Below are positions 1,143 to 15,618 of a stretch of DNA of 20,361 nucleotides, piece by piece (positions within the stretch are counted from its first letter, which is position 1; the number at the start of each line of letters is the position of its first letter). A program made the translations under genes and the position numbers. The notes under the pieces were generated by a model that saw only the letters and a program-made list of their open reading frames with translations, was not told the origin of the DNA and made no database searches. The stretch is from a virus (Duplodnaviria > Heunggongvirae > Uroviricota > Caudoviricetes): positions 1 through 20,361 of IMG/VR virus record IMGVR_UViG_2734482780_000011. One strand, given 5' to 3'.

Positions 1143-2609
1143 TTAGTCAGGAATTGAGTCTTGAAGGTGACGGACTGGAAAATTAAAACTGTAACTATCG
1201 TTATAAAAATCTGATAGATTGTAGATTCTTAATATTATGCGATTACATAATAATCTCAATATTTTAACTTCACGAATGAGAGGGATTATTTCACTATCAT
1301 CAGATTTGTTTCCATGAGCTGAATTGTTACGCTGTTTGAAACTGTTTTTTTCTAATGCTCCTAAGGTTAAGTTTAATGTTTCGTAAAATCTATTTGTTAG
1401 AATTGACTGTGGCGTTTGATTTAGACCAGATAATTTATTCGAGAGTAGATTCTTATCTTCCTCATCCAAAGAAATTTCTTCAGTTATAATTTTCGATAGT
1501 GATTGATGTAATTGTTTCCATAGATTTTTATTTACAAGTTTTGTATTGATCTTTGTGGGGTTTTTCTCTATAAATTTTCGTTGGATAAACTCTAATGTAG
1601 CACCGAAACCAACACCCTTTAGATGTAGGGGGGATGCAGCCGCATGCCAATAGAGCCAAGAGAAATGAGAGAAATCATATTTGTCATAATGGTCAACAAT
1701 TTTTTGAACCATTTGGCTAATTTCACTTTCATCAAGGAATAAATATTCTGAACCAACTGGATGTAATGGTGCAGGGGGTAGGCTATTAGCCGTATAATAT
1801 AAGTCATTGATAGCGTATTGCGTGTAAATTTCAGATTCAATAGAGTTGTAATTTTCATCCTTCAAAGTGCTTGATATATGAATTAATTTACACCCTAATA
1901 TAAAAGATAATGCATCTCTTATTTTCTTTCTCAGTTCGTTGTCACACTCCTTGCTATAAAGAATGAATCCAGGATTATATTTTTTGTCAATTGTTAAACA
2001 ATCATTATGTCCAAAGAAAATATCCATTTCATTAACGCGAATACTACAACATTTTAAACTATTAGATGTAGTATAGTTCTTATCGAAGAAGGAGATAGTA
2101 CTTCTGGCAGATACAAAGTTTCTTTTAATTGTATTTTCATATGATTCTTTAATGCTTGAAGTCCAGCAGTATTGCCCTATGTCTAAATTTGTAATCCAGT
2201 CAATTATGAATTTGTTTTTTTCTGCATGTTTAATTGAGTTGTTACATTGTTTTACAGTTGATATTGAGCATTTTATAGTGGCAAAGGTTTCATGATGGTC
2301 AGTTTTTATGTTTGTGCTTGACAGACTTATGCCATAAAATTCTAATGTAATGTTCTTGTTGTTAATATCTTCTAAAATAAGATATCCATCAATTTTATAT
2401 ATATCACCTTCTTTTCTCTCTGGCTCATTAAAAAAAATAATATTCAAAGCCTCCTTTTTGGGAGGCTTGTAAGTAATCTCTAAAATTAATCTAAGTTTAT
2501 CATCTCGAGATATTCTGAAAGAGTGGAAATTGTTTAATATTCGATTGCTATCTTTAAATTTCCAATGATCACATTGAATTTTTTCTAAGTCTTCCCAGCC
2601 AATATTCAT
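1143..2609 (-). CDS. Hypothetical 488-aa protein, AT-rich cargo gene; candidate defence/abortive-infection protein with a possible C-terminal HEPN-like motif
   Basis: Long uninterrupted ORF, visibly much more AT-rich than its neighbours. Start ATG at 2609 lies 15 nt after the cI stop, preceded by GGAAGG. Residues about 427..432 read RNNSAH (Rx4H pattern). No Walker motif or other recognisable domain seen by eye. Confidence 0.75.
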   Translation of the reverse strand: MNIGWEDLEKIQCDHWKFKDSNRILNNFHSFRISRDDKLRLILEITYKPPKKEALNIIFFNEPERKEGDIYKIDGYLILEDINNKNITLEFYGISLSSTNIKTDHHETFATIKCSISTVKQCNNSIKHAEKNKFIIDWITNLDIGQYCWTSSIKESYENTIKRNFVSARSTISFFDKNYTTSNSLKCCSIRVNEMDIFFGHNDCLTIDKKYNPGFILYSKECDNELRKKIRDALSFILGCKLIHISSTLKDENYNSIESEIYTQYAINDLYYTANSLPPAPLHPVGSEYLFLDESEISQMVQKIVDHYDKYDFSHFSWLYWHAAASPLHLKGVGFGATLEFIQRKFIEKNPTKINTKLVNKNLWKQLHQSLSKIITEEISLDEEDKNLLSNKLSGLNQTPQSILTNRFYETLNLTLGALEKNSFKQRNNSAHGNKSDDSEIIPLIREVKILRLLCNRIILRIYNLSDFYNDSYSFNFPVRHLQDSIPD

Positions 2610-2624
2610 TTAAATAACCTTCCA

Positions 2625-3197
2625 TTATATTTGAGATTCGATAGTTGATACAACGCGACCTTTTAACGAAATATCACTAACGTTACTTATAAAGCTTGTT
2701 AGGTTGTTTTCAATTTTTAGCTGACCAGCAGGCATGCGATACACTTTCCGAAACGATAAATTTCCATCAATTGATATTAACCAAGTCCCATCGGAATAGT
2801 TAGCATTTGAACAATCAACGAAATGAATTGTTTTTATATCTCTAATCACATGTAGATTATCGAAGCCTACGGGCAATAATTTATCGTCGAAGGTAACAAG
2901 TCCATCTTCGACAAGTACGCCATTTTTTAAAATATAGGACTGTAATTCTTTTACGCTATTAGATGACGTAGAGCCAAGAGTTTTAGAACCATTCCCTGTT
3001 ACTAGCCATTTGAGTGAGACGCCTGTCTCTAGCGCACACTGAATTATGTAGTCAGCAGGAAATGTATCTCGCAGGTAGCGGTTTGCCAAAGTACTACTGC
3101 TGATCCCCAATCGTTCACACAGCGCTTGTTTCGTCGTAACCCCATATGCTTCTAGCATACGCTCAATAGCTGCTTTTCCGCCTTTTCGCAAATCCAT
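2625..3197 (-). CDS. cI: Prophage immunity repressor CI (186-type, HTH N-terminus)
   Basis: ORF 2625..3299 (-). From the internal Met the sequence reads MDLRKGGKAAIERMLEAYGVTTKQALCERLGISSSTLANRYLRD...CALETG...WLVTG, an HTH repressor pattern like 186 CI. Start at 3197 gives 190 aa and leaves the operator/promoter region untranslated. Confidence 0.8.
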   Translation of the reverse strand: MDLRKGGKAAIERMLEAYGVTTKQALCERLGISSSTLANRYLRDTFPADYIIQCALETGVSLKWLVTGNGSKTLGSTSSNSVKELQSYILKNGVLVEDGLVTFDDKLLPVGFDNLHVIRDIKTIHFVDCSNANYSDGTWLISIDGNLSFRKVYRMPAGQLKIENNLTSFISNVSDISLKGRVVSTIESQI

Positions 3198-3205
3198 AAA
3201 ATTCC

Positions 3206-3276
3206 CGAAACGTGAGTAAATACCTTGACACTCACGTTTCGTGAGTTTAAATTCATCTCGAAACGTGAGTAATTCA
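3206..3276. promoter_or_regulatory. Lysis/lysogeny switch: candidate lytic promoter (-35 TTGACA 3225..3230, -10 TAAATT 3248..3253) with palindromic operator CTCACGTTTCGTGAG in the spacer, flanked by direct GAAACGTGAGTA half-site repeats
   Basis: Perfect inverted repeat ctcacg/cgtgag at 3231..3245 placed between the -35 and -10; GAAACGTGAGTA copies at 3206..3217 and 3262..3273. Position between divergent cI and apl matches 186/P2 switch architecture. Confidence 0.6.
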
Positions 3277-3320
3277 CTTCTTATCCCGGCTCGCCACAAG
3301 CCAATAGGAGATGTTGCATC

Positions 3321-3542
3321 ATGACCCCTAATATTTCAATAACTCTGAATACACCACACGTCACAATTGAGCGTTATAGCGAACTTACTGGTCTTTCTAT
3401 CGACACAATCAACGATATGCTGGCTGATGGTCGCATCCCTCGCCATCGTCTTCGAAAAGACAAGAAAAGAGAAAAGGTAATGATCAACCTTGCTGCTCTC
3501 ACTGTTGATGCACTTACTGATTGCAATGTTGTATTTAACTAG
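3321..3542 (+). CDS. apl: Apl/Cox-like excisionase and transcriptional regulator
   Basis: 73-aa ORF directly right of the switch, AGGAG 9 nt before the ATG, small basic protein ([15 protein letters not shown]); position and size match 186 Apl / P2 Cox. Confidence 0.65.
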
Positions 3543-3574
3543 TTCCATTTTGGGATACATCAGGGGTGTCGACT

Positions 3575-4084
3575 ATGTTTGATTACCAAGTTTCCAAACA
3601 TCCACATTTTGATGAAGCCTGTCGTGCATTCGCACTGCGCCACAACCTGGTGCAACTGGCAGAACGTGCAGGCATGAATGTGCAGATTCTGCGGAACAAG
3701 CTGAACCCAGCTCAACCTCATTTATTAACCGCACCAGAAATCTGGCTGCTTACCGATCTGACTGAAGATTCAACGCTGGTAGATGGTTTTCTGGCACAGA
3801 TTCATTGTCTGCCATGTGTACCGATTAATGAGGTAGCAAAAGAGAAACTGCCACATTACGTCATGAGTGCAACCGCAGAGATCGGGCGTGTTGCTGCAGG
3901 TGCGGTATCTGGCGATGTAAAAACCAGTACAGGTCGTCGTGATGCTATCAGCAGCATTAACTCTGTAACACGACTGATGGCGTTGGCTGCTGTTTCATTG
4001 CAGGCCCGTTTACAGGCTAACCCTGCGATGGCGAGTGCAGTTGATACCGTGACTGGCCTCGGTGCTTCATTCGGTTTGCTGTGA
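3575..4084 (+). CDS. cII: CII-like lysogeny establishment regulator (186-type)
   Basis: ORF 3566..4084; start at ATG 3575 with AGGGG upstream gives 169 aa, the size of 186 CII; position right after apl. Confidence 0.75.
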
Positions 4085-6948: not shown

Positions 6949-7757
6949 GTCATGACGATATGAGCAACTCTAGCGGCTTTAACGAGGCCGCTGCAGCATT
7001 TTCATGGAACGGCCCGAAAAAGGCCATTAACCCTTATCTGGACCCGGCGGAAGTTGCGCCGGAGTCTGCACTTTCAAACATGATCACTCTGTACGCTGCC
7101 GATAACGAGCAGGAACAGCTGCGCCGCGATGCACTGAGTGAGCAGGTCTGGGAGCGTTATTTCTTTAATGAATCCCGTGATCCTGTCCAGCGCGAAATGG
7201 AGCAGGATAATCTCATTAGTCGGGCAAAGCTGGCGCATGAGCAGCAGCGTTTTAACCCGGACATGGTCATTCTGGCGGACGTCAGCGCCCAGCCCACCCA
7301 CATCAGCAAGCCGCTGATGCAACGTATCGAATACTTCAGCAGCCTGGGCAGGCCAAAGGCTTATTCCCGCTATTTGCGTGAGACGATTAAGCCATGTCTG
7401 GAGCGACTGGAGTATGTACGCGACAGTCAGCTATCCGCTTCTTTCCGTTTTATGGCAAGCCATCAAGGGCTTGAGGGCCTGCTGATCCTGCCTGAAATGA
7501 GTCAGGATCAGGTAAAACGCCTGTCCACCCTGGTACGCCAGGTGAAGCTGAAAAGGCGTAAAGACTACAAACAGCGAATTACAGATCATCAGCATCAGCA
7601 GCTCGTCTATGAACTGAAGTCCAGAGGATTTGATGGCAGCGAGAAAGAGGTCGATTTACTCCTTCGCGGTGGCAGTATTCCGTCAGGAGCAGGCCTGCGT
7701 ATTTTCTATCGGAACCAGCGTTTGCAGGAAGATGATAAGTGGCGGAACCTGTATTAA
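6945..7757 (+). CDS. Hypothetical 270-aa protein
   Basis: ORF start overlaps the dam stop (ATGA at 6945..6948); acidic/glutamine-rich, no recognised domain; does not look like a rolling-circle replication initiator. Confidence 0.55.
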
Positions 7758-8810: not shown

Positions 8811-9392
8811 ATGAGCGAAAGGAAAAGAATTGAAGATCAGTATCTTCTCTATCATTTAACATGTATGGATAATCTACCTAGTATTTTAGACACAGGATTA
8901 AGATCTCGTGCATCAGTAAAAGGTGAGTTTGTTGATGTGGCCGACGGTGAAATAATAACAGGTCGCGAAGCATTAAATTTGCAAACAATGGTTCCTTTTC
9001 ATTTCTTTACTAAGAATCCATTTGATGGAAGAGTCCTGAAAGATCATAAGGAAAAATCATTTTGTATTATTTCGGTTTGTCGGGCATTTGCCAAAGAAAA
9101 TGGTTGGAAAGTTATCCCTAAACATCCATTATCCACCAGTTCTGTTATAGACCTCTTAGATTATGAACAAGGAATGGCCCAAATTGACTGGGAGCTAATG
9201 AATATAAGGGATTATAAAAATGCAGAATGCAAATCTGTATGTATGGCTGAGTGTTTATCAAGTGTAACGGTCGAGCCGAAAAATTTCCATTGCATCTTTG
9301 TCAAAAATGATAACGAAAAAAAATATGTTGAAGGGTTGATAAAACAACAAGGATTAAGTATATTGATAACGATCAACACTTATATGTTCTAA
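8811..9392 (+). CDS. darT: DarT-like ssDNA ADP-ribosyltransferase toxin (DUF4433 family)
   Basis: LYHLTCMDNLPSIL, VPFHFF, DWELM and a late acidic segment match my recollection of DarT signatures (IYHITHIDNLKGIL, VPFYF, DWEAM); AT-rich; immediately followed by a macrodomain gene. Confidence 0.7.
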   Translation: MSERKRIEDQYLLYHLTCMDNLPSILDTGLRSRASVKGEFVDVADGEIITGREALNLQTMVPFHFFTKNPFDGRVLKDHKEKSFCIISVCRAFAKENGWKVIPKHPLSTSSVIDLLDYEQGMAQIDWELMNIRDYKNAECKSVCMAECLSSVTVEPKNFHCIFVKNDNEKKYVEGLIKQQGLSILITINTYMF

Positions 9393-9396
9393 TTCT

Positions 9397-10368
9397 ATGA
9401 TTAAGTATGCAAGCGGAAATCTTCTAAACTCTACATCGCAAGCTCTTGTGAATGCTGTAAACTGCCAAGGAGTCATGGGAAAGGGTATTGCTTTGGCTTT
9501 TAAAGAAACTTTTCCCTATAATTTCGAAGTTTATAAGAGAGCATGCGCCACTGGTACAATGAAAATTGGACAGGTTTTAATTGTAGAGGAAAAGGGAAAA
9601 ATAATTGTAAACTTTCCCACTAAAGATAGTTGGAGAAAAAAATCAACATATGATTTTATCTCGCAAGGCCTTGAATCTTTAGCAAAAATTATAGATGAAA
9701 AAAAAATTACATCAATATCAATACCACCTTTAGGCTGTGGTAATGGGGGCCTCGATTGGAATAAGGTTGAGGCTCTTATTTTAAAAACTTTTCAAAATTT
9801 AGATAATGTTGATGTGGTAATTTATCCGCCTGCAACTAACAATCAACTTTCAAAAAATAAAAATGTTATTAATGCTAAGCATCTTTTGGTTCACTACGCC
9901 TATGGAAAATTAAAAGTTAAGCAAAAATATTCCCTTTATACAGTTTTTTATATTTGCGAATGTATTGAGAAAGCAAATCTTTTTTTATTCGATTTTAAAC
10001 ATGGTCGGCCATACTCTTCTGAGTTAGAAAATATTATGAAGGATATAGCAAACCTTAAAGTTGAGTTGCAAGGAGATTTTGATGCTTTTATTGAAGATTA
10101 TATTAATACTCATCAATCCAAAGAGTTACAAACCGAGTTTGGTAAACTAATCTCAACTTTAAATCCAAGTATAAGTTTGCTCAATGCTCTTAAAAATAAG
10201 ATTGATTATATAGATAGCGTACATGTGATCACGAGAATTGCTAAAGAAAAAGATCATGGCTTGCATATTGACAATTTCAAAGAATATGAAAATATTGTGC
10301 AGCATTTAATTAAAAATGGATTGGTAATCGAAGATATTTTTAACGAACTAAAAATAAAGGGAAGTTAG
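9397..10368 (+). CDS. darG: DarG-like macrodomain antitoxin
   Basis: N-terminus GNLLNSTSQALVNAVNCQGVMGKGIALAF is the macrodomain nucleotide-binding signature (N-x-x-N / G-x-G loop); 4 nt downstream of darT; AT-rich. Confidence 0.75.
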   Translation: MIKYASGNLLNSTSQALVNAVNCQGVMGKGIALAFKETFPYNFEVYKRACATGTMKIGQVLIVEEKGKIIVNFPTKDSWRKKSTYDFISQGLESLAKIIDEKKITSISIPPLGCGNGGLDWNKVEALILKTFQNLDNVDVVIYPPATNNQLSKNKNVINAKHLLVHYAYGKLKVKQKYSLYTVFYICECIEKANLFLFDFKHGRPYSSELENIMKDIANLKVELQGDFDAFIEDYINTHQSKELQTEFGKLISTLNPSISLLNALKNKIDYIDSVHVITRIAKEKDHGLHIDNFKEYENIVQHLIKNGLVIEDIFNELKIKGS

Positions 10369-10920
10369 TAGCGCTATTTTCAATTTTTTTGCTGAAATTG
10401 CGCATGCACACTCTCACGCATTATAGATGCGGCGTTAATCCCGCCAGGAGTGTTGTTTAATAAATTGAACTATTTCTGCATTGAAGGATCAACTTACGCA
10501 TTCGCTGACAACGCAGGCACTCTCCTGGCTAAGCAGAAATTCAGAGTAACCAACTGGCACTTTTACAACAATTTTCTTATCAGTTGCGGCTCCATGACTT
10601 TCTGGTGGGATAACAAAGCAATTAAGGCGTGGTATTGTAAGTATCCCGCATAATCATGCTAGTAACATTTGTCCCCCATGTAACCTAATTAAGGCAACTT
10701 CCGCTCTTCGCTCACAGTGAACCTCCATGTTTGTAAACCCGTATATTTCGTTTTTTAAGTGGTCATTCAGATACGGATTTTCACTTCTCTTGGCTGTGCA
10801 TGACTATGCTGCATGAAATTGCATGATCGTTTGAGGATCGTTTTTGCTGAGGCCCCCCAGAACTGGCGGGCTTTCGCTTATGTCATGCAGGTGCATGAAA
10901 ATCACTGCATAAAGCGGGCA

Positions 10921-10939
10921 GGCGTGGCGGGGATACGAG
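10921..10939. other. Candidate cos site (P2/186-type cohesive end region)
   Basis: ggcgtggcggggatacgagcgcgcgct resembles the P2/186 cohesive-end region as I recall it (GGCG[A/T]GGCGGGGAAAGCA...GCGCGCT); recalled, not searched. Four TGCATGA copies lie 20 to 125 bp upstream. Confidence 0.5.
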
Positions 10940-11091
10940 CGCGCGCTAAGTCATATAAGAGTTATATATTGATTTGATTGCTGGACATGCATACAGTATC
11001 GCTCTATCATCTAATAAATCTTAGAGTATTTGACAATGTTTGGATAAAATGGAACCTAACTTATTCATAATCCGCTAAACAGGGATGTCAG

Positions 11092-12006
11092 ATGCCATAC
11101 CAATTGGTAGAGCTTAGCCCCGTAGCTAACGATCTTGAACAGTTAGGAACCAAAGAGAAGTTTTGGTTCTATTTCTCCGATGACACTGTAAATTTGCAGT
11201 TGTTTAAGTACTCTAGGCCAGATACTGGCGAGCATTGGTCTGAAAAGTGTGCTGCTGAGTTATGTCATTTGCTTAACATTCCACATGCTAGCTATGATTT
11301 GGCGCGATACAATGGTCGATTCGGTGTGGTGACTCAGAATATCATTCCATCTGGTTTCCGGATGGTAATGGGAAATGAAGTGCTTCACAGTTCGACATTC
11401 GATTATCCTGGGCCTTTACAAGCCGGGGAAAAGCCGGTAAGGGTCAGAGAACACACTGTCACAAGGGTATTGGGTTGTTTAGATAGGGAATCTATCAAGC
11501 CTCCTCCGAGTGTATATGATCTAACCGGGCTAAATGCAGCAGATGTATTTTGTGGATATTTGATGCTCGATGCACTTGTGAGTAATCAAGATCGCCATCA
11601 TGAAAATTGGGCGATCATGCTTAACAATGAAACTGGTGAGCAGTTTTTGTGTCCAACATACGATCATGCCGCTAGTTTAGGAAGGGAGATGTTAGATGAT
11701 GAGCGTAACGAACGGCTTAATACTAAAGATAAAAATCGACAAATCCCATGTTTTGTAAGAAAAGCTCGCTCTGAGCTATTCAAAGCAAAAACTGATAAAA
11801 AGCCCTTGCTGACCGTTGAAGCATTTCAACATGCAGTTGAAGGGAGAGTTGCCGCTCGCGACCATTGGTTAGGTAAGTTGAGCGTTTTAACAGAAGATTC
11901 CATTACAGATGTGTTTAACCAAGTGCCTTCATCGTGTATATCCGACAGTGCACGTAGATTTGCAACGTTAATGGTAATGGAAAATCGCAGAAGGTTACTA
12001 GAATGA
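11092..12006 (+). CDS. HipA-like serine/threonine kinase, short form lacking the N-terminal domain (304 aa)
   Basis: GTKEKFWF (compare HipA GAQEK), catalytic-loop-like LVSNQDRHHENWAIM (compare HipA D-x-H-x-K-N) and LCPTYDHAASLG (compare HipA P-x-YD) in the HipA order and spacing. Confidence 0.65.
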   Translation: MPYQLVELSPVANDLEQLGTKEKFWFYFSDDTVNLQLFKYSRPDTGEHWSEKCAAELCHLLNIPHASYDLARYNGRFGVVTQNIIPSGFRMVMGNEVLHSSTFDYPGPLQAGEKPVRVREHTVTRVLGCLDRESIKPPPSVYDLTGLNAADVFCGYLMLDALVSNQDRHHENWAIMLNNETGEQFLCPTYDHAASLGREMLDDERNERLNTKDKNRQIPCFVRKARSELFKAKTDKKPLLTVEAFQHAVEGRVAARDHWLGKLSVLTEDSITDVFNQVPSSCISDSARRFATLMVMENRRRLLE

Positions 12007-12743
12007 CTAATACAAACTCCGTTTACGTCGCATGGCAGGCACCAGATACCAGAGACTGGCATGTTGTTGGTAACTTGCAAGAGCGCAAATCGGGGTATGT
12101 TTTCAGGTATACCAAAGGTGCTCTTAAATCTACTAAATTTACAAAGTTTAGCGGCATGAGTGATGTTCGTGAAACTTATGTTTCGGAAGAATTGTTTCCT
12201 CTTTTTAAAAATCGCCTTTTATCACCGAGACGTCCAGAGTATCCGAGTTTCATTAAATGGCTTGGATTTGAAGAAGATAAGGTAAATCCTATCGATATTC
12301 TTGCTCGCTCGGGAGGCCTACGAAGCACTGATCAGCTGCAGATTTTCAAAAAAATTGATGTTGATTCTGATGGTAACTTTGAGCATTTTTTCTTCTTACA
12401 TGGACTTGGTTACTTAAATAGCTTAGCTAATGCTCGTGTATCTGAATTGAAACCGGGGCAAATTTTGCGTCTTTGCTTGGATCTTCAAAATGAATACGAT
12501 GGGGATGCTGTTGTCGTTCGTGCAGATAAACCAGCTGAAATCGTTGGTTATTGCCCTAGGTATTTAAGTAATGATATCAAGAAGATGTTATTGGATGATC
12601 CAAAATCAATCACTTTAACGGTCGAAAAGATTAGCGATGATGCTCCTCATAACTATCGGTTATTATGTAAATTATCAGGAGTACTAAGCCAAGCCTGTCA
12701 ATCGACGCTGATTCCTCAGGATGAGTTTGAACCTATTGAGTAA
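12003..12743 (+). CDS. Two-domain partner: HipA-N/HipS-like N-terminal domain fused to a C-terminal HIRAN-like domain (246 aa)
   Basis: Start overlaps the kinase stop (ATGA). N-terminus VYVAWQ...VGNLQ...YVFRY...LFPLFKNRLLSPRR resembles the HipA N-terminal domain. C-terminus KPGQILRLCLDLQNEYDGDAVVVRADKPAEIVGYCPRYLSNDIKKMLLDD fits the HIRAN pattern. Confidence 0.55.
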   Translation: MTNTNSVYVAWQAPDTRDWHVVGNLQERKSGYVFRYTKGALKSTKFTKFSGMSDVRETYVSEELFPLFKNRLLSPRRPEYPSFIKWLGFEEDKVNPIDILARSGGLRSTDQLQIFKKIDVDSDGNFEHFFFLHGLGYLNSLANARVSELKPGQILRLCLDLQNEYDGDAVVVRADKPAEIVGYCPRYLSNDIKKMLLDDPKSITLTVEKISDDAPHNYRLLCKLSGVLSQACQSTLIPQDEFEPIE

Positions 12744-12748
12744 ATGAA

Positions 12749-12774
12749 GAAAAGCCACCAAACGGTGGCTTTTC
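12749..12774. terminator. Bidirectional rho-independent terminator between the HipA-like module and Q
   Basis: 11-bp perfect stem gaaaagccacc / ggtggcttttc with a 4-nt loop, T-rich flanks on both strands, between convergent stops at 12743 and 12778. Confidence 0.7.
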
Positions 12775-12777
12775 TTA

Positions 12778-13818
12778 TTATGGGACTATATCTAGCGAGT
12801 AGGTATTAAACTGTATCGCCTCCTTGCCAAGCCAATCATTCATCTCCTGTAATCGCTTTTGTAGTGGCATTAGCTCATTTCGGACGAATACACGGCTTGC
12901 CTTCTCCACATCCCCAAACCCCCCAACATTATTCGGCATAATCCCCATCATTTGCGGCGGCACACGATGCGCCGCCATCATGTCGTCCCGGCTTACGTTC
13001 TTGATGTTCAGAAACTCATCCTTTGCCGCCACTTCTGACAGCGGGATGATCTGAAGCCCGTCCTTTTTGCCGTTAGGCGAGTACATAAACAGGTTGCGGA
13101 AGTTGCCCGGACCTTTGGCGCTTTTCATCGCGTTGCGGAGGTTGTTCACATCCTCCTGGTTCTGAGCGGCATCGGTCATGTACATTATGAATCCTGCATG
13201 GCTGCCATTAATATAATATTTGCGTCGGAACAGCGTGGCGGACTCGTTGAGCAGGGCTGACGGAATGGCAGAAAGATAGCCGGGCAGGCCGTAGATCTCC
13301 TGGTTGATATCGGGTTCCATCAGATGAAAGATGCTGCCTTTCGTGAACTGATACGGCTGGGTTGTCATACCGTATTGCACAAACCAGTAGGTATCCAGGT
13401 CTAACCCGCGTCGGGTGTATTTTGCCAGAGCAGGCTCAAGGGCGATAACTTCACCGAAGCGGTTCGTGCGTTTCTCCAGGTAGGCGTTACCAAATACCAG
13501 ATAGTCCTGCACAAAACGTGAAAAAGCCTGCTGGCTAAGCAGCGGGTGAGGGATGTAGGTGCTGGTTAGAATGTTGCATTTCACTGCAATGGGTGAGCTG
13601 TGATGCACGGCGGCGCGGAAGGTTCGCGCCAGTCCGTCAAAGCTGACGGGCGGCTCATACCAACGGTCCATCTGTACGCATTCCACATAGTCCAGTAATT
13701 CTCGGCGGTCCAGTACTGGAATGGGATCGCCGAAGCTGAATGCTTCGGCTGAAGTCTGGCTTTTATGCTGGGTCTGGTTCTGCGACGCAGCGCGGTTCTT
13801 CTTACTCTTTCCCATCAA
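12778..13818 (-). CDS. Q: Portal protein (P2 gpQ-like)
   Basis: 346 aa, close to the size of P2 gpQ; start overlaps the stop of the upstream terminase fragment as in the P2 PQ operon; 3' end points toward the cos-like site. Confidence 0.8.
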   Translation of the reverse strand: MMGKSKKNRAASQNQTQHKSQTSAEAFSFGDPIPVLDRRELLDYVECVQMDRWYEPPVSFDGLARTFRAAVHHSSPIAVKCNILTSTYIPHPLLSQQAFSRFVQDYLVFGNAYLEKRTNRFGEVIALEPALAKYTRRGLDLDTYWFVQYGMTTQPYQFTKGSIFHLMEPDINQEIYGLPGYLSAIPSALLNESATLFRRKYYINGSHAGFIMYMTDAAQNQEDVNNLRNAMKSAKGPGNFRNLFMYSPNGKKDGLQIIPLSEVAAKDEFLNIKNVSRDDMMAAHRVPPQMMGIMPNNVGGFGDVEKASRVFVRNELMPLQKRLQEMNDWLGKEAIQFNTYSLDIVP

Positions 13819-14231
13819 AAAATCTCCACAATATTGCTGGTATTGGCGGACTCGCCCTGCAGCGGTTCGTTAAACAGTGCGTGCATTGTTGCCCAGGCCA
13901 GATCGGCGTGGCTGGCTTCTTCGCTGCGGCTGGCTTCATAGGTCGGGCGGTTGCCACTGGCGGTGGTGGCGCGACGGATTGCCATAAATGACTGCGCTAT
14001 GTCGGTGTGTCCGGCGTCAAACTCCAGACGGCGGTGGCTGATAATGTCGTAGGCCTTGAGTACCAGAGCGTTTTTAACGTTGGGGTTGTAGACAAACTCC
14101 CGGACGGCAGGAAAGAACGCTTTCACGTTCTCATAAACCCCGTGACCGACGCCTGTCGAGTCAATGCCGATATAGGTCACGTTGTACTGCTCGGTCAGTT
14201 TTTTGATTCCGCCCTTAATCATCTCAACCAT
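13815..14231 (-). pseudogene. P: Terminase large subunit (gpP-like), C-terminal 138-aa remnant
   Basis: Only the C-terminal part of what should be an approximately 590-aa protein; coupled to Q; no upstream start or ATPase region present. Confidence 0.65.
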
Positions 14232-14298: not shown

Positions 14299-15618
14299 AT
14301 GACAGCCGCTGACAGAACGTGCCCCCGCGCACGGGCGGCACGGGGTGGCGAAAGGCACAGCCACATCAAAACCCCGTCCACCGCCCTTTATTTCAGGAGA
14401 AAGCAGCATGAAGTTTGTTGCGCCAGAACAGGCAACGCCGCAGGTTTACTTACTGCGCCGTTGTCGTCTTTGCGCCGCACGGCATCACTGACGGGAAATG
14501 TCCTGAAAACTGTAGCAGGTGCGCCGGTTGCACTTTTGCGGTCTGGATTATCCGGTTTACGTGCTGTTGCTGTTATGTTTATGAATCCTCTGGCGGTACT
14601 GCGCGGTGGACTGGCCGCCGCAGGCACGGTGCTGCGAGTACTGGCATCTGGTCCACTGGCGATGCTGCGCGTTGCCCTGTATGCCATATCTGGTCTGTTA
14701 GGTGCTCTGCTCAGTCCGATAGGTCTTGTGGTTACTGCACTGGCGGGCGTGGCGCTGGTTGTCTGGAAATACTGGCAACCCATCACCGCATTTCTCGGTG
14801 GCGTGGTGGAAGGATTCAAAGCGGCGGCAGGTCCCATCAGTGCAGCGTTCGAACCGCTTAAGCCCGTGTTCCAGTGGATTGGCGACAAAGTGCAGGCGCT
14901 GTGGGGCTGGTTTACTGATCTGCTGACGCCCGTTAAGTCGACCTCTGCCGAACTGCAGAGCGCAGCGGCAATGGGGCGGCGATTCGGGGAGGCACTGGCG
15001 GAAGGGCTGAATATGGTCATGCATCCGCTGGACTCCCTGAAATCCGGCGTTTCCTGGTTGCTGGAGAAGCTCGGCATTGTCAGTAAAGAGGCCGCAAAGG
15101 CAAAACTGCCGGAAAGCGTGACGCGTCAGCAACCTGCGACGGTGAATGCAGACGGTAAAGTGATGATGCCATCGGGTGGTTTTCCATCATGGGGATATGA
15201 CTTTGCGGGGATGTATGACAGCGGCGGGTATATCCCGCGCGGGCAGTTTGGCATCGTCGGTGAAAACGGGCCGGAAATTGTTAACGGCCCGGCAAATGTG
15301 ACCAGCCGGAGAAATACAGCTGCACTGGCTGCCGTTGTTGCCGGAATGATGGGCGTTGCTGCCGCGCCAGCAGAGCTTCCACCGTTGCACCCTTTGGCAC
15401 TTCCCGCGAAAGGTGGAGAAGCAATTGTGAGTCGCGCAGCCACTGTGCCGCTCGTTCAACGGATTGAGGCACCGACGCAGATCATCATTCAGACGCAGCC
15501 AGGACAAAGTGCGCAGGATATTGCGCGGGAGGTGGCACGCCAGCTTGATGAACGTGAACGCAGGCTGAAGGCAAAAGCCAGGAGTAACTACAGCGATCAG
15601 GGGGGATACGACGCATGA
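14299..15618 (+). pseudogene. T: Tail tape measure protein (gpT-like), C-terminal portion only
   Basis: Gly/Ala-rich helical repeats and GGYIPRGQFGIVGENGPEIV near the C-terminus; 439-codon frame versus about 800 aa expected; followed directly by U and D. Confidence 0.65.

Follow-up and report, generated by a model that had tools for sequence, protein, structure and literature searches.

A probable P2-family cos site with cargo genes on both sides in a decayed Escherichia coli prophage

The window, by which we mean the whole stretch of DNA analysed (20,361 nucleotides), carries a decayed prophage of the P2 family (Fels-2/SEN8-like) integrated beside ybjL. The host is E. coli, with the right flank matching ybjL-ybjM-grxA at 99.9% identity. 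The order of genes is that of the P2 family: a remnant of replication gene A, a DinI-like gene, the DarTG genes, cos, further cargo, and portal gene Q, which lies on the minus strand and is transcribed toward cos. The integrase and CI repressor reading frames are full-length. Between them lies a 488-aa ORF (1143-2609, minus strand) with no Pfam or PADLOC match; since the Klebsiella phage KP12 carries a different gene at the same position, a 558-aa 'chromosome segregation ATPase', the interval between integrase and CI is probably another variable cargo slot. The features on which the following argument depends are listed here in window coordinates.

8811-9392, plus strand: DarT (Pfam PF14487, E = 9e-22; PADLOC, E = 2e-36)
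9397-10368, plus strand: DarG (Macro; Pfam PF01661, E = 6e-19; PADLOC, E = 1e-80)
10450-10635, plus strand: remnant of an IS903/IS5-family transposase gene (~73% DNA identity to IS903 copies in phage records)
10795-10947, plus strand: cos island of 153 bp, offsets -126 to +26 from the first cohesive-end base (from conservation and BLAST)
10797-10826, plus strand: three direct TGCATGA repeats starting at 10797, 10810 and 10820 (spacing 13 and 10 bp)
10851-10875, plus strand: GC-rich inverted repeat GGCCCCCCAG-AAC-TGGCGGGC, then TTTC, between the distal and proximal TGCATGA groups
10883-10898, no strand assigned: inverted pair TCATGCA-GG-TGCATGA, proximal to the nick (repeat search)
10921-10939, plus strand: predicted cohesive end of 19 nt, GGCGTGGCGGGGATACGAG (match to annotated ends)
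10982-11010, plus strand: promoter-like site TGGACA-17-TATCAT upstream of the left-arm operon (consensus match alone)
11092-12006, plus strand: HipA-like small kinase, 304 aa (PADLOC PDC-M03A, E = 2e-122)
12003-12743, plus strand: HIRAN-domain protein gene, 246 aa (PADLOC PDC-M03B, E = 3e-93; Pfam HIRAN, E = 1e-13)
12747-12777, no strand assigned: bidirectional terminator hairpin, 13-bp stem flanked by an A-run and a T-run (folding energy)
12778-13818, minus strand: portal gene Q, directed toward cos (Pfam Phage_portal, E = 4e-19)
13815-14207, minus strand: 3' remnant, 393 bp, of large terminase gene P (alignment with KP12 and E. coli prophages)

A first-pass annotation of this DNA placed cargo on both sides of cos, and that is where we find it: the right arm has DarT and DarG, the left arm a HipA-like/HIRAN pair. 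The right-arm genes (8811-10368) are a DarTG toxin-antitoxin defence system, with the DarT ADP-ribosyltransferase followed by the macrodomain antitoxin DarG. The transposase remnant beyond them is annotated in E. coli relatives as an incomplete IS5/IS1182 transposase. It accompanies DarTG in all four of the DarTG-carrying E. coli prophages that we fetched, and in strain CT29 the corresponding right-arm slot contains a complete copy of IS903B (2970-3938 of locus L092). These copies are notable, since hotspots of this kind are said to have almost no insertion sequences (PMC13586616).

The two left-arm genes overlap and form an operon of 1,652 bp (11092-12743). The 304-aa kinase scores below the Pfam HipA_C cutoff (E = 3e-4, 21 bits against 30.5 bits). 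In the 246-aa partner protein the HIRAN domain is C-terminal, at residues 127-228, and the HipS-like part gives a weak Couple_hipA signal that is under the Pfam cutoff (E = 0.018). The hairpin at 12747-12777 folds with -21.6 and -20.4 kcal/mol on its two strands (z = -6.1 and -6.6), stands directly beside the Q stop codon, and serves as terminator for both the left-arm operon and Q.

Decay has cost the element its terminase genes and part of its replication gene A. Replication gene A has an internal deletion of ~1.6 kb with its junction at 7534-7538. Q is 95-99% identical in DNA to the portal genes of related prophages, and behind it the alignment with KP12 and E. coli prophages breaks at 14207, then resumes in a 228-bp M/L scrap and in tail gene T. 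Apart from the scrap, everything between the middle of P and the middle of T is gone: the rest of P, then O and N, and nearly all of M, of which ~100 bp of the 3' end is left. After the scrap come T from 14431 and then U, D and ogr, to ~17597. The deletion junctions (7534-7538, 14207 and 14431-14434) have overlaps of 1-5 bp, and contiguity across any of the three is absent from 5,426 complete E. coli genomes. A P4-like satellite origin is ruled out by the P2-type neighbours A, Q, P, T, U, D and ogr. The cognate terminase genes of a P2-family cos, gpP and gpM, are not intact in this element, and with P and M lost, its cos is therefore orphaned. The missing terminase bears on the present function of the site, not on its homology.

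The interval 10797-10945 had been singled out as cos-like, and the conserved island that we delimit, 10795-10947, nearly coincides with it. Across 60 distinct related cos regions, information content is 1-2 bits from about -126 to +26 and ~0.1 bit on either side, as far as -130 and past +26; BLAST matches to P2-like phages begin at 10796-10798 and stop at 10946-10954, and on either side of the island the sequence is unrelated among relatives. Because conservation is confined to -126 to +26, we take the 153-bp island to be the functional unit.

At its heart is ggcgtggcggggatacgagcgcgcgct, which starts at 10921 and whose first 19 nt are the predicted cohesive end, with a conserved CGCGCGC (10940-10946) directly 3' of it. 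The predicted end agrees with the annotated cohesive end of 186 at 15 of 19 positions and with those of P2 and P4 at 14 of 19 each. The closest match is to SEN8, an isolated Salmonella phage of the genus Felsduovirus: its annotated 'putative cos site' (bases 1-19) is identical to 10921-10939 at 19/19, the next 7 nt match as well, and the last base of its record corresponds to window 10920, exactly at the predicted nick.

For P2, 186 and P4 the two ends of each record were joined, right to left, and the junctions were aligned together with the window and KP12. The window and P2, 186 and P4 have three blocks in common, TGCAT..TGCAT..GCAT, GGTGCATnAAAAyC and AAAGyGGGC(A/G)GGCG(A/T)GGCGGGGA.A....GCGCGC, and their placement holds in all five sequences: the TGCAT group lies ~100-125 bp upstream of the cohesive end, GGTGCATnAAAAyC stands at about -30, and AAAGyGGGC(A/G) abuts GGCG(A/T)GGCGGGGA.A....GCGCGC. 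A conserved nick core is thus present, its shared blocks running from ~-35 to +26, where information content is 1.2-2 bits per position. A profile made from the five-sequence alignment finds one site in the window, at 10792-10949; its E-value of 6e-45 is not independent support, as the window is one of the five sequences that build the profile, and it proves only that the site is single. Neither the profile nor a core-motif search gave a second or better cos candidate in the window, where the core motif occurs once. The region had been called a P2/186-type cos, with alignment to the P2 and 186 genome ends proposed as the check. That alignment was made, with P4 added, and the call holds: the blocks are shared, the window has no rival site, and the position is the expected one between the A region and Q.

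The one part of the nick region that departs from the experimentally characterised phages is the end of the overhang. Cohesive-end bases 14-19 are TACGAG here, whereas P2 and P4 have AAGCAC and 186 has AAGCAT. TACGAG is the common variant in Enterobacteriaceae prophages of the Fels-2/SEN8 type, and ATACGAG is found in most of the 59 related loci that have the exact core motif. As these last six bases differ from the experimentally defined P2 and 186 ends, the 3' limit of the predicted overhang is placed by register. Taken as a whole, we hold with a probability of about 0.9 that 10795-10947 is the cos packaging site of a P2-family prophage with interchangeable cassettes on both sides.

The first-pass annotation listed four TGCATGA copies. 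All four positions (10797, 10810, 10820 and 10892, on the plus strand) are right; the count is one short, since a fifth copy, at 10883-10889 on the minus strand, was overlooked. It pairs with the copy at 10892 as TCATGCA-GG-TGCATGA. The heptamer is not in excess across the whole window (6 found, 5.1 expected), so any significance lies only in its clustering and in its conserved positions. Five of the six copies lie within 102 bp, and the largest cluster seen in 2,000 dinucleotide-preserving shuffles had three. The five offsets (-124, -111, -101, -38 and -29) are kept, with at most one mismatch, in 47-62 of 64 distinct cos regions, and they are the same whatever cargo flanks cos. The GCAT core is present at the three distal offsets in 52-55 of the 64, P2, 186 and P4 included, and the inverted pair is exact at its two offsets in 51 and 57 of them.

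These regularities bear on whether the copies belong to packaging at all. They might instead be operators or promoter elements for the cargo, and a promoter-like site does lie nearby, at 10982-11010; or they might have clustered by chance. We consider both very unlikely. Offsets measured from the nick are preserved in P2, 186, P4 and ~60 prophages whose cargo is unrelated, the copies are inside the conserved island while the cargo promoter is outside it, and none of the 2,000 shuffles produced a cluster of five. The three distal repeats are likely to be distal terminase-binding elements, to judge by their conservation, and the retention of the same five offsets in 47-62 of the 64 cos regions is consistent with the earlier suggestion that the copies are what would be expected of terminase recognition elements.

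Between the distal and proximal heptamers, the GC-rich inverted repeat at 10851-10875 resembles a terminator for rightward transcription, and could halt such transcription before the nick. Over 64 regions its stem positions are in standard pairs in 84% of cells, a figure that falls to 27-47% with a shifted partner column. The window's own copy has one C.C mismatch, a trait of this lineage. In a covariation test the hairpin was conserved mostly without variation; because few of the changes are compensatory, its structure is not proven. At the aligned position P4 and 186 have GC-rich inverted repeats of other sequence, and none is evident in P2.

How the site would work can be proposed by analogy with P2, 186 and P4. 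Binding by terminase, made of the small subunit gpM and the large subunit gpP, would take place on the upstream arm, which carries the three direct TGCATGA copies ~100-125 bp and the inverted pair 23-38 bp before the nick. The enzyme would then make staggered nicks, at the positions predicted above, to leave the 19-nt 5' end GGCGTGGCGGGGATACGAG. DarTG would thereby come to lie at the right end of the packaged chromosome and the HipA-like kinase/HIRAN pair at its left end. With P and M gone from the present element and A internally deleted, its orphan cos could presumably be cut by no terminase except that of another P2-like phage whose cos is of the same type.

Such cutting could in principle still be going on. 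The prophage, of at least 17.6 kb, might behave as a satellite that excises with its own integrase, is packaged by a P2-like helper, and spreads its defence cassettes. Its cos island is undamaged, with the same sequence as in apparently complete prophages, the int and CI frames are full-length, and P2 helpers package plasmids that carry only the P4 cos site (PMC9942202). We nevertheless think this unlikely. The internal deletion of A precludes self-replication, and the element has no satellite-type hijacking genes. Packaging efficiency depends on the size of the substrate (PMC9942202), and as a monomer the element, with at least 17.6 kb (attL lies beyond the window), has the wrong length for both a P2-size (33 kb) and a P4-size (11.6 kb) head. 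The deletion junctions, with their overlaps of 1-5 bp, resemble ordinary decay. The reading we prefer is thus of an orphaned cos in a decaying prophage.

The distance from the cohesive end to the Q stop codon is 1,838 bp here (10940-12777), compared with 167 bp in P2 and 176 bp in 186. The portal gene of P2 had been said to end ~100 bp from cos, which is too short a figure; that a module of 1.65 kb separates cos from the portal gene is borne out by the 1,652-bp operon within the 1,838-bp gap. The first-pass annotation also implied that a filled gap is exceptional or a fresh insertion, and asked whether the interval is normally empty in relatives. We scanned the window's portal protein against one genome per bacterial species and obtained 80 loci, 67 of which have a cos profile match and 59 the exact core motif upstream of the portal gene. 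Among these 59 prophages the gap is at most 250 bp in only 9, 250-1,000 bp in 7 and more than 1 kb in 43; the median is 1,684 bp, so a filled gap is the rule.

The contents of the gap are varied. Its ORFs of at least 90 aa (n = 94) include matches to PD-T4-9, bSEFIR, AbiL, AriA, Old, HEC-01 and PDC-M01/M07/M11, and also to TIR and KAP NTPase domains; diverse PADLOC families occupy the slot in 48 relatives, and two genes occupy it in the isolated phage SEN8. In 88 of the 94 cases the cargo ORF points from cos to Q, as it does in the window. On the right arm, 43 of 61 loci have their nearest ORF directed to cos. The strand bias may reflect selection against transcription that enters cos from the left. 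Two loci, from Franconibacter (L055) and Enterobacter sp. kpr-6 (L080), have a second, weaker cos-profile match 0.5-5.7 kb upstream of the main one, which could come from tandem or neighbouring P2/P4-type elements.

A filled gap in relatives does not by itself tell how this one was filled. The HipA-like/HIRAN module could be a recent, private insertion into a gap that was formerly empty, as it is in P2, 186 and the close relative TUM2820, which shares the DarTG arm; all three have a short, gene-free gap of about 158-176 bp. We give this explanation hardly any credence. The module occurs at the same borders (+26 to the terminator beside Q) in 21 of 5,426 E. coli genomes, at 99-99.9% identity, and again in the same slot of a prophage from another species (L013), at 88-89% protein identity. 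It is moreover continuous, at 99.2%, with the neighbouring Q and P of the MB06022 type, and therefore came within a larger left-arm block and was not inserted here. Apparently intact E. coli prophages have the same left module in the same slot.

The right and left cargo assort independently. Roughly 1,260 E. coli genomes have a phage of this type. Among the 5,426 complete E. coli genomes, 10 have the DarTG module and 21 the HipA-like/HIRAN module; none has both together or the exact DarTG/cos/HipA-like combination of the window. DarTG is found beside three other left-arm states, namely an empty gap (TUM2820), three hypothetical genes (S40) and a 778-aa AAA ATPase (2018-11-3CC), and these three prophages are identical to the window from -330 to between +24 and +26 and unrelated to it beyond. 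Conversely, the 12 left-module copies that we compared (the window and 11 fetched E. coli genomes) adjoin eight right-arm states: ASCH with a restriction enzyme, SIR2 with an ATPase, a KAP NTPase with IS903B, three different hypothetical genes, no cargo, and DarTG.

Within these 12 copies the boundary between the two arms is sharp. Copies that share their right cargo also share one haplotype in the upstream cos arm (-130 to -6), and that haplotype is independent of the two left-arm haplotypes; from +25 on, the sequence, including the Q and P alleles, goes with the left cargo. No site is polymorphic between -5 and +24, and sites -40 and +25 occur in all four allele combinations. SCU-106 and MB7671 illustrate the point, sharing the whole upstream arm while differing in left haplotype and in Q and P alleles. 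Up to 10946 the window shares 99.1% identity with the TUM2820 type, and from 10903 on, through Q and what is left of P, 99.2% with the MB06022 type, which maps its switch to 30-44 bp, and the change from right to left haplotype always falls within 30-44 bp that contain the cohesive end.

One explanation, to which we assign an even chance, is that the 'single' gpA-gpQ hotspot consists of two slots at opposite chromosome ends that are re-assorted at the cos nick as a fixed joint. Prophage and circular form alike have the two slots side by side, and packaging as a linear chromosome puts one slot at each end. If co-resident phages underwent one crossover, wherever it fell, and cutting then ran from cos to cos, the right cassette of one phage would be paired with the left cassette of the other in long, one-sided blocks. 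The same pattern would come from ordinary homologous recombination inside the 30-bp identical core, and the invariant core is also the longest identical tract between the diverged islands. An exchange-promoting role for cos ends was a speculation of Rousset et al. (PMC9122126). A modest additional point, in our view, is that the two slots assort independently of each other, with the cos core between them.

For annotation, the analysis locates the packaging site and with it the true chromosome ends of the phage, and it reveals a decayed prophage remnant that retains two defence cassettes, which are likely expressed in the E. coli host. It also describes the known cos-proximal hotspot, at base-pair resolution, as two compartments shuffling independently around a 153-bp island. 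If the joint is indeed the terminase cut, one crossover anywhere suffices to make new pairs of defence systems, which would help to explain the very many arrangements reported at the hotspot. The two-compartment point leaves the verdict as it is, that of a known element in a known arrangement.

The known system closest to the island itself is the cos of P2, 186 and P4, described by Ziermann & Calendar (1990) as cited in PMC9122126 and PMC5694545; the latter attributes to the same work a 55-bp core around the nick common to the three phages. The site in the window is like theirs in its 19-nt GGCG(A/T)GGCGGGGA... end and in the conserved core from ~-35 to +26. It is also like theirs in the TGCAT motifs on the upstream (right-end) arm and in its location just downstream of the portal gene's 3' end. 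It differs in that the cognate terminase genes have been deleted.

For the left-arm genes, both proteins match the PADLOC candidate PDC-M03 strongly, and the genes are arranged as in the putative hipIN toxin-antitoxin modules (Gerdes et al. 2021, PMC8262856), in which HipI is a small HipA-family kinase without N-subdomain 1. From the sequences, the pair appears to be a candidate defence module that is hipIN-like.

The slot that holds these genes has precedents of its own. A slot from cosL to Q is described in PMC5694545, which cites Dodd & Egan (1996) and Nakayama (1999) for it. The title of the former, as cited there, has retrons replacing the DNA between cos and a terminator of a 186-related prophage. 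Foreign genes in the 186-related slot likewise fill the interval from the cohesive end to the Q terminator exactly, and the difference is that a HipA-like kinase/HIRAN pair is found here, not a retron or toxin gene.

At the level of the whole locus, the counterpart is the gpA-gpQ hotspot of Rousset et al. (2022, PMC9122126) and the 2026 follow-up (PMC13586616), where variable anti-phage cassettes lie between A and Q, beside cos. The hotspot adjoins cos, and many of its loci have more than one system (PMC9122126); the window, with DarTG and PDC-M03, and its relatives, with their diverse PADLOC families, conform to this. Several systems per locus are thus common there too. In the window there is one system on each side, and the available parts of the two papers neither split the locus at cos nor map the junctions there. 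Cargo on both sides of cos is the usual, already known arrangement of this phage lineage.
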